DNA of 64,000 nucleotides from Escherichia phage PinkRuby. The notes beneath the pieces were generated by a model, which worked only from the letters and a program-made list of their open reading frames with translations, was not told the DNA's origin and ran no database searches. Numbering within the stretch: the stretch's first letter is position 1; each line of letters starts with the position of its first letter. Below, in pieces: positions 60,247-60,822 of this stretch. Position numbers and translations under genes: made by a program. The stretch lies in the sequence record PP925839.1, one strand, 5' to 3'.

Positions 60247-60460
60247 ATTCTACTTCCTCACCCGTTCCCAAATCATATTCAACTAAACGAATAGGTTCAT
60301 GAATGCCATATCCCTGAACAGAAATTTCTGTTGTAGGATAAATTCCATCAATATCACCCATATTCCATGCTTCATTAAATTGCTGTTCGCCTGAATTACT
60401 AAACCACTCGGCGAAAGCATTTAACACATCTTTAGAACCTTCAATAATTATCTTTGCCAT
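60239..60460 (-). CDS. small hypothetical protein
   Basis: 73-aa ORF. Confidence 0.45.
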   Translation of the reverse strand: MAKIIIEGSKDVLNAFAEWFSNSGEQQFNEAWNMGDIDGIYPTTEISVQGYGIHEPIRLVEYDLGTGEEVEYD

Positions 60461-60822
60461 TACAAACTCTCAGTAAATGTACGAGCGATAACGTCGCGCT
60501 GCTGTTCCGGAATCAGAGAGTTAAAGCGAACTGCATAACCGGATACACGGATGGTCAGCTGCGGATATTTTTCCGGATGCTTAACTGCATCTTCCAGAGT
60601 TTCACGACGCAGAACGTTAACGTTCAGGTGTTGACCACCTTCAATTTTAACCGTAGGCTGTGGTTCAATTTCAATTTCACGGGCATGCAAACCGTAGAAA
60701 ATTTCCGGGTCTACAAAAGAGTCCTCTTTAAAGGTTTTAGAGACAATAATTCGTGCTTGAATACCATCTTCAAAATAAATAGTACCTTTATGCGTGCCTT
60801 CAAGAATTTGATATGCTTTCAT
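60460..60822 (-). CDS. autonomous glycyl radical cofactor (GrcA/YfiD-like; T4 Y06I-type)
   Basis: 120 aa; C-terminal ~70 aa nearly identical to E. coli GrcA including glycyl-radical motif RVSGYAVRF; locally higher GC. Confidence 0.85.

Follow-up and report, generated by a model that had tools for sequence, protein, structure and literature searches.

The product of vs.6 of Escherichia phage PinkRuby appears to be a T-even "spare part" cofactor, which by analogy with its characterised relatives would rescue O2-damaged PFL of the host, and the gene itself appears to be a mosaic in which the host allele has replaced the 3′ half at least twice. We put the probability of this reading at roughly 85%. 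The gene as such and the in vitro function of its T4 ortholog are already known from publications going back to 2001, and genome pipelines already label the gene. The window referred to below is the whole stretch of 64 kb that was analysed; it belongs to a Tequatrovirus and shares 97-98% nucleotide identity with many T4-group genomes.

The vs.6 ORF is intact, with an ATG start and a TAA stop, and its 120-aa product is recognised by the Pfam model Gly_radical (PF01228) at aa 61-101 with E=3.9e-18, the match covering only the last 41 of the 106 profile positions. A GrcA/YfiD-type gene with an RVSGY motif, as proposed for positions 60460-60822 in the initial annotation, is thus clearly present. 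The motif lines up with RVSGY of GrcA (Gly102) and of PFL (Gly734). The gene is packed tightly within a co-oriented array, vs.8-vs.7-vs.6-vs.5-vs.4(Acb2)-vs.3-regB, in which it lies between vs.7 and vs.5; its ribosome-binding site overlaps the vs.7 stop codon, and its own stop codon overlaps the vs.5 start in the sequence TAATG (60458..60462). Scanning positions 59900-62000 for sigma-70 promoters and terminators yielded no sites in excess over shuffled sequences. Residue 104, nine residues after the radical glycine, is Ile in PinkRuby (NSL[T/I]PEQQ). This T104I change is private, as the residue is Thr in T4, in GrcA of E. coli and K. pneumoniae, and in all other homologs examined from Tequatro-, Mosig-, Jiaoda-, Slopek-, Pseudoteven- and Krischvirus, and the exact Vs.6 protein sequence was absent from a collection of 15 billion proteins. 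A second variable site is a GAAATT hexamer repeat encoding EIEIE, the copy number of which differs among close relatives (EIEIEPQP in PinkRuby, EIEIEIETQP in VIPECOOM03, EIETQP in OES_C-2); it looks like a slippage polymorphism within the putatively disordered half. Features are compiled in Table 1.

Table 1. Position of vs.6, its parts and the NrdD/NrdG genes in the 64-kb window of PinkRuby.
Feature	Position	Strand	Description
vs.6 / Y06I ortholog	60460..60822	(-)	120-aa predicted autonomous glycyl-radical cofactor, GrcA-like
[quoted passage not shown]
GAAATT hexamer repeat	60664..60679	(-)	Encodes EIEIE, just 5′ of the phage/host junction
Host-allele block, 3′ 185 nt (codons ~60-120 + stop)	60460..60644	(-)	E. 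coli grcA-type DNA, 48% GC; structured glycyl-radical domain
Glycyl-radical motif RVSGY, R92-V-S-G95-Y96	60535..60549	(-)	Direct sequence reading
Gly95 codon	60538..60540	(-)	Direct sequence reading
GAGG ribosome-binding site	60827..60830	(-)	4 nt ahead of the vs.6 ATG, overlaps the vs.7 stop codon
NrdD, anaerobic ribonucleotide reductase	40658..42475	(-)	Pfam NRDD (E=1.8e-171) and Gly_radical; C-terminal motif RRTCGYLG
NrdG, radical-SAM activase of NrdD	40191..40661	(-)	Pfam Fer4_12 (E=1.4e-48) and Radical_SAM

Several neighbouring genes were characterised in passing. The vs.4 homolog two genes downstream of vs.6 (59980..60246, (-)) carries the Pfam Acb2/Tad1 hairpin domain (E=7e-20) and is named "anti-CBASS protein 2" in some phage records. 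The tk.4 homolog (57818..58297, (-)) contains a Macro domain (E=1.3e-7) and the vs.1 homolog (58628..59173, (-)) an SLT lytic transglycosylase domain (E=1.4e-5), both in agreement with earlier T4 annotation. Two genes located between vs.8 and denV, 61848..62321 (-) and 62338..62655 (-), encode products starting with MKTYQEFITEA and MKTYKEFIAES, respectively; the former was assigned to phrog_3155 ("internal virion protein"), the latter to phrog_3966, which has no assigned function. No gene is present between denV (62665..63081) and the lysozyme gene e (63141..63635). As the order in T4 is denV-ipII-ipIII-e, the internal-protein genes of PinkRuby are placed differently and represent different alleles.

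Orthology of vs.6 to its T4 namesake was evident from both sequence and synteny. The two proteins are identical at 118 of 120 residues (98.3%), and T4 vs.6 is located at positions 63557-63919 of NC_000866, where RefSeq names the product autonomous glycyl radical cofactor GrcA. Both features of the T4 vs.6 orthologous group (PHROG 1209) were found, namely a full-length match to phrog_1209 (aa 1-120, E=1.7e-61) and the conserved location in the vs-regB block with vs.7 and vs.5 as neighbours, which match phrog_2049 (vs.7) and phrog_1986 (vs.5). T4 possesses one GrcA-like gene, as tblastn gave one place per record, and Y06I is therefore most probably identical with Vs.6; the T4 counterpart Y06I named at the outset hence corresponds to vs.6 and to the GrcA of RefSeq. 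Concerning the bacterial family, the best NCBIfam model was the GrcA equivalog TIGR04365 (E=3.3e-44) and the best match among solved structures was E. coli GrcA (PDB 6OWR, residues 28-127, E=5.9e-41), followed by PFL residues 697-759 with 48 of 63 residues identical (76%, E=3.6e-25). BLASTP against E. coli GrcA gave 73/100 identities (E=2e-51). From E61 to L120 the identity amounts to 59 of 60 residues, the sole mismatch being I104 against T; the near-identity to GrcA previously noted is therefore real, but extends over ~60-61 C-terminal residues and not over the 70 that had been estimated. The size, the RVSGY motif, the PFL-type C-domain and a homologous N-half, i.e., the sequence features of GrcA/YfiD (TIGR04365, IPR011140), are all found in Vs.6, which departs from the family only in its score of 150.2 bits; the divergent N-half keeps it under the curated TIGR04365 cut-off of 170.

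Homologs of Vs.6 were detected in 1,591 phage records, in 1,538 of them at full length, and vs.6 belongs to the 11 ORFs of unknown function kept in all T4-like genomes compared in PMC1524935. We count this conservation as an indication of probable selection for an intact gene. The naming of the family is heterogeneous: PHROGs v4 labels phrog_1209 as "unknown function" despite its biochemically characterised T4 member, and phage records call the proteins pyruvate formate-lyase, 2-ketobutyrate formate-lyase, acetyltransferase-related protein or hypothetical protein. A GrcA-like gene of ~122 aa, ~51-53% identical and located beside the tRNA region, is also present in T5-like Demerecviridae (siphoviruses of Escherichia and Salmonella), so that the spare-part gene is spread over unrelated lytic enterobacterial phage families. 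In the annotation of Morganella phage vB_Mm5 (L086:1237-1890) the GrcA-like sequence makes up the C-terminal 130 aa of an ORF of 217 aa, the N-terminal extension of ~87 aa representing either a genuine fusion or a mis-called start.

The functional assignment builds on the characterised relatives. YfiD and T4 Y06I are given as the only two validated spare part proteins in PMC8683613, which relays the work of Wagner et al. (2001, BBRC 285:456), and according to the same account PFL-AE puts a glycyl radical on both proteins and both reactivate PFL cleaved by O2 at Gly734. Residues 61-127 of YfiD form a structured domain with a fold shared with PFL 693-759; residues 1-60 are disordered, yet improve binding of cleaved PFL and installation of the radical (PMC8683613). 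Repair of host PFL, one of the two targets considered in the initial annotation, thus agrees with the function reported for the T4 protein as relayed there. For PinkRuby we propose the following course of events. Oxygen would cut host PFL at its radical glycine Gly734, Vs.6 would bind the damaged enzyme, and its C-terminal domain (aa ~60-120), which resembles PFL 697-759 in sequence, would stand in for the lost radical loop. Once PflA, the host's PFL-activating enzyme, had set a radical on Gly95 of Vs.6, pyruvate would again be converted to acetyl-CoA and formate. Infection by T-even phages shuts down host transcription and leads to breakdown of the host chromosome. The infected host would consequently be unable to induce its own grcA, and the phage copy may keep the fermentative supply of ATP and acetyl-CoA going in the micro-oxic gut. 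The benefit of vs.6 in vivo during infection is thus presumed; no phenotype data for vs.6 were found.

The divergent N-half of Vs.6 is the part that, as far as PMC8683613 relates, aids activation and the binding to cleaved PFL, and its divergence counts against the spare-part reading. It would also be in keeping with a hijack or decoy, in which Vs.6 draws PflA away from host GrcA or intact PFL, or alters PFL complexes via its N-half, and thereby redirects or throttles pyruvate flux: the reported mediator of recognition and activation is only ~28% identical to the bacterial version, and its conservation within phages suggests a phage-specific constraint. T4 Y06I, however, is described in the same source as acting like YfiD in reconstituting cleaved PFL, and the catalytic domain has been kept essentially host-identical, as would be the case for a functional replacement part. 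We therefore regard a decoy function as improbable.

The second target considered in the initial annotation was the phage's own NrdD. Vs.6 would then be activated by NrdG and replace the radical segment of O2-cleaved NrdD. Both NrdD and NrdG are indeed encoded in the window, O2 cleavage is common to all glycyl-radical enzymes, and PMC8683613 speculates on spare parts for other members of the class. A role in nucleotide metabolism was suggested from the Pfam match alone in PMC1524935, and Aeromonas phage phiAS5 has its GrcA-like gene flanked directly by nrdD-nrdG on one side and nrdC-nrdH on the other. In PinkRuby, however, the gene is not alongside the anaerobic ribonucleotide reductase genes as had been stated, but ~18 kb away from them in the vs.8-regB block. 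Moreover, similarity between Vs.6 and the NrdD of the window was not detectable by BLASTP (E=4.2), so that the proposed repair of NrdD finds no support in the sequences. The NrdD radical motif and tail RRTCGYLGNPNERGFNLGKNKEIMHRVKHQ are unlike the corresponding Vs.6/PFL segment; the C-terminal radical segment characteristic of NrdD (RRTCGYLG and the tail following it) is not found in Vs.6, and the two tails (RRTCGYLGNPNERGF... in NrdD) differ and are unrelated. The C-domain of Vs.6 instead shares 59/60 residues with GrcA and 76% of residues with PFL 697-759, and the phiAS5 protein too has a PFL-type tail. Since a spare part works by replacing the matching segment and Vs.6 lacks likeness to NrdD, we consider NrdD repair very unlikely. 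The phiAS5 gene itself (L090:1501-1878) overlaps the nrdG stop codon within a cluster nrdD-nrdG-grcA-like-nrdC-nrdH, a position unlike that in coliphages.

The nucleotide sequence of vs.6 revealed two parts of apparently different origin. Alignment with E. coli grcA at the nucleotide level, proposed as a check in the initial annotation, gave 97.3% identity over the 3′ 185 nt with the Gly-radical motif retained, and this value (ORF nt 179-363) was obtained for grcA in 5426/5426 complete E. coli genomes. In a three-way alignment of PinkRuby, T4 and E. coli, the identity sets in abruptly at ...TTGAAGGTGGTCAA and ends at the stop codon; the last codons of vs.6 are phage-specific. In a panel of hosts the 3′ block came closest to grcA of E. 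coli (97-98% identity) and of another Escherichia species (96-97%), followed by Citrobacter amalonaticus (90-91%) and by Salmonella, Klebsiella and Enterobacter (82-85%). The grcA gene of E. coli diverges by degrees, as expected, from its counterparts in Citrobacter, Salmonella, Klebsiella and Enterobacter, which argues for a transfer from host to phage. Megablast of the whole window against the 5,426 complete E. coli genomes matched only at positions 60456-60644, apart from a weaker pflB paralog match, and thus no other host-derived patch was detected in the 64 kb by this search.

Base composition changes along with the identity. The GC content of the 3′ 180 nt is 47.8% and that of the 5′ 183 nt 35.5%, compared with a window mean of 34.5% (sd 3.9%, 180-nt windows); only 0.11% of the 180-nt windows are as GC-rich as the 3′ half, and the maximum of the window (48.9%) lies inside the block. 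Other GC-rich 180-nt windows, e.g., at 19911-20100 (within the 475-aa ORF 19680..21107) and at 43521-43730, were inspected and are not E. coli-like. A maximum chi-square analysis placed the breakpoint at the EGGQH junction; left of it the identity to E. coli grcA is 0.47, right of it 0.973, and none of 300 permutations (0/300) reached the observed value. Among codons specifying the same residue as in E. coli grcA, 55 of 59 are identical in the 3′ half and 8 of 17 in the 5′ half. Purifying selection on the protein cannot explain the 3′ identity, because synonymous sites are identical too.

The 5′ half, with 47% nucleotide identity to E. coli grcA, has a history of its own. It is conserved among Tequatro-, Mosig-, Jiaoda-, Slopek-, Pseudoteven- and Krischvirus, and comparison of the phage N-halves with bacterial GrcA N-halves by hhalign gave a probability of 92.2% (E=6e-7) over 60 collinear columns at ~28% identity. 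By this profile match the 5′ half is to be regarded as homologous to the bacterial GrcA N-half, though strongly diverged, and together with its conservation in phages this argues that the whole gene descends from an old phage-borne grcA. Acquisition from the host accompanied by a local rise in GC, as originally put forward for the gene, accordingly holds for the 3′ 185 nt, but not for the AT-rich 5′ half of the phage lineage. These sequences show vs.6 to be a mosaic of an old phage 5′ half and a 3′ half that has most probably been replaced by the host's own grcA allele.

Jiaodavirus, a sister genus, carries a phage-type 5′ half that is 73-77% identical to that of PinkRuby at the nucleotide level, together with a 3′ block of 56% GC. 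Since the GTDB panel was without K. pneumoniae, grcA of this species was represented by three metagenome loci (L095-L097), the encoded protein of which is identical to GRCA_KLEP7 by exact-protein look-up. At the start of the block, phage KP17 is identical to these loci at 101/101 nt and phage Shinkou at 120/121 nt; within the first 165 nt both phages agree with K. pneumoniae grcA at ~97-98% of positions, and their final ~15 nt are phage-specific. Using E. coli grcA as megablast query, 638 phage records with at least 95% identity were obtained, all from Escherichia/Shigella-type T-even phages and restricted to query nt 200-384. The K. pneumoniae query matched 106 records at 95-99% over query nt 202-369/374, and among the matches listed all were Klebsiella phages. 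The Salmonella enterica query matched no phage above 90%, and the Enterobacter sichuanensis query none at 95% or above and one at 90-95%; E. coli and Klebsiella are therefore the only hosts for which such allele blocks are documented. With none of these four host grcA queries was any phage match to the 5′ half obtained. The E. coli-type 3′ block is carried by Tequatrovirus and Mosigvirus, the K. pneumoniae-type by Jiaodavirus, and the homologs of Slopekvirus, Pseudotevenvirus, Krischvirus, T5-like phages and Aeromonas phage displayed ordinary 3′ divergence, with 64-84% identity to any bacterium in the panel.

The most economical interpretation of this distribution is that the same domain-coding tract was replaced in the direction host to phage at least twice independently, once by an E. 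coli and once by a K. pneumoniae allele. The converted tract lies strictly inside the region of protein homology and its flanks are phage-type, which points to homologous recombination inside the conserved region as the mechanism. It is likely, in our view, that in Tequatro-, Mosig- and Jiaodavirus the host genus in which a lineage replicates has supplied the grcA allele now forming the radical-domain half of vs.6, through recombination between phage and host chromosome in lytic infection, and possibly repeatedly. Within the Tequatroviruses the 3′-terminal codons occur in non-nested combinations (GAA/GAG, AGC/AGT, CTG/TTG/CTA), which hints at several conversion events or at point mutation; a single event in the common ancestor of Tequatro- and Mosigvirus followed by point mutations would also fit the star-like pattern. 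Tequatro- and Mosigvirus differ by 9-10% in the 5′ half and by ~4% in the 3′ half, at ~60 codons per half. The allele replacement is possibly neutral rather than adaptive, as just two residues distinguish the C-domain of E. coli from that of Klebsiella (LEDAVKH versus LLDAVEH). That the host-like block is passively captured, functionless DNA or an assembly or contamination artefact, as the host-like GC content of the block and the lack of any other E. coli-like DNA in the window might suggest, is refuted by the recurrence of the same in-frame junction in hundreds of independently sequenced phage genomes (638 phage records), by an intact ORF that has a ribosome-binding site and is translationally coupled to the adjoining genes, and by host similarity that ends at the stop codon with phage-specific last codons, and we regard it as practically impossible.

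T4 Vs.6 is the closest known system: its gene occupies the same locus between vs.7 and vs.5, encodes 120 aa as well, and changes to E. coli-type 3′ DNA at the same mosaic junction. The two differ in residues 73 and 104 (R73 and I104 in PinkRuby, H73 and T104 in T4), in a few synonymous positions, and in the 3′ end of the host-identical tract, which stops slightly earlier in PinkRuby (ACA...GAG compared with ACC...GAA in T4). E. coli GrcA/YfiD (6OWR; TIGR04365; IPR011140) is likewise a standalone protein of ~14 kDa with a nearly identical C-domain including RVSGY and a collinear N-half, and by this analogy the rescue mechanism is expected to be the same. In contrast, the N-half of Vs.6 is ~28% identical and 7 residues shorter, and vs.6 resides in an early-region gene array of the phage, whereas grcA is regulated by the host. 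The C-terminal domain of PflB (697-759; PDB 2PFL/1H16), identical at 48/63 residues and sharing the sequence of the radical loop and of the C-terminal helix, is the part that the spare protein replaces; Vs.6 lacks the catalytic barrel of ~690 residues and cannot act as an enzyme by itself. Cyanophage psbA, encoding the D1 protein of photosystem II, is a phage auxiliary metabolic gene in which segments have been swapped with the host homolog, resulting in mosaics with host-like GC patches. It differs from vs.6 in gene, hosts and phage group, and the vs.6 tract corresponds to one structural domain with alleles of two enterobacterial genera. No published account of a host-specific vs.6 mosaic was found in the searched literature, which lacked most subscription journals; the mosaic would represent a new example of a known phenomenon rather than a new kind of system.

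The vs.6 gene represents a clean and checkable case of a lytic phage that carries a repair part for a host enzyme. Domain-precise and host-genus-specific replacement of its allele argues that T-even phages recombine with host DNA despite destroying it, and the 185-nt tract offers a simple marker to follow exchange between host and phage and to infer the evolutionary host of a lineage. If the interpretation is true, vs.6 would be a natural reporter of gene conversion from host to T-even phage as well as a marker of the evolutionary host.
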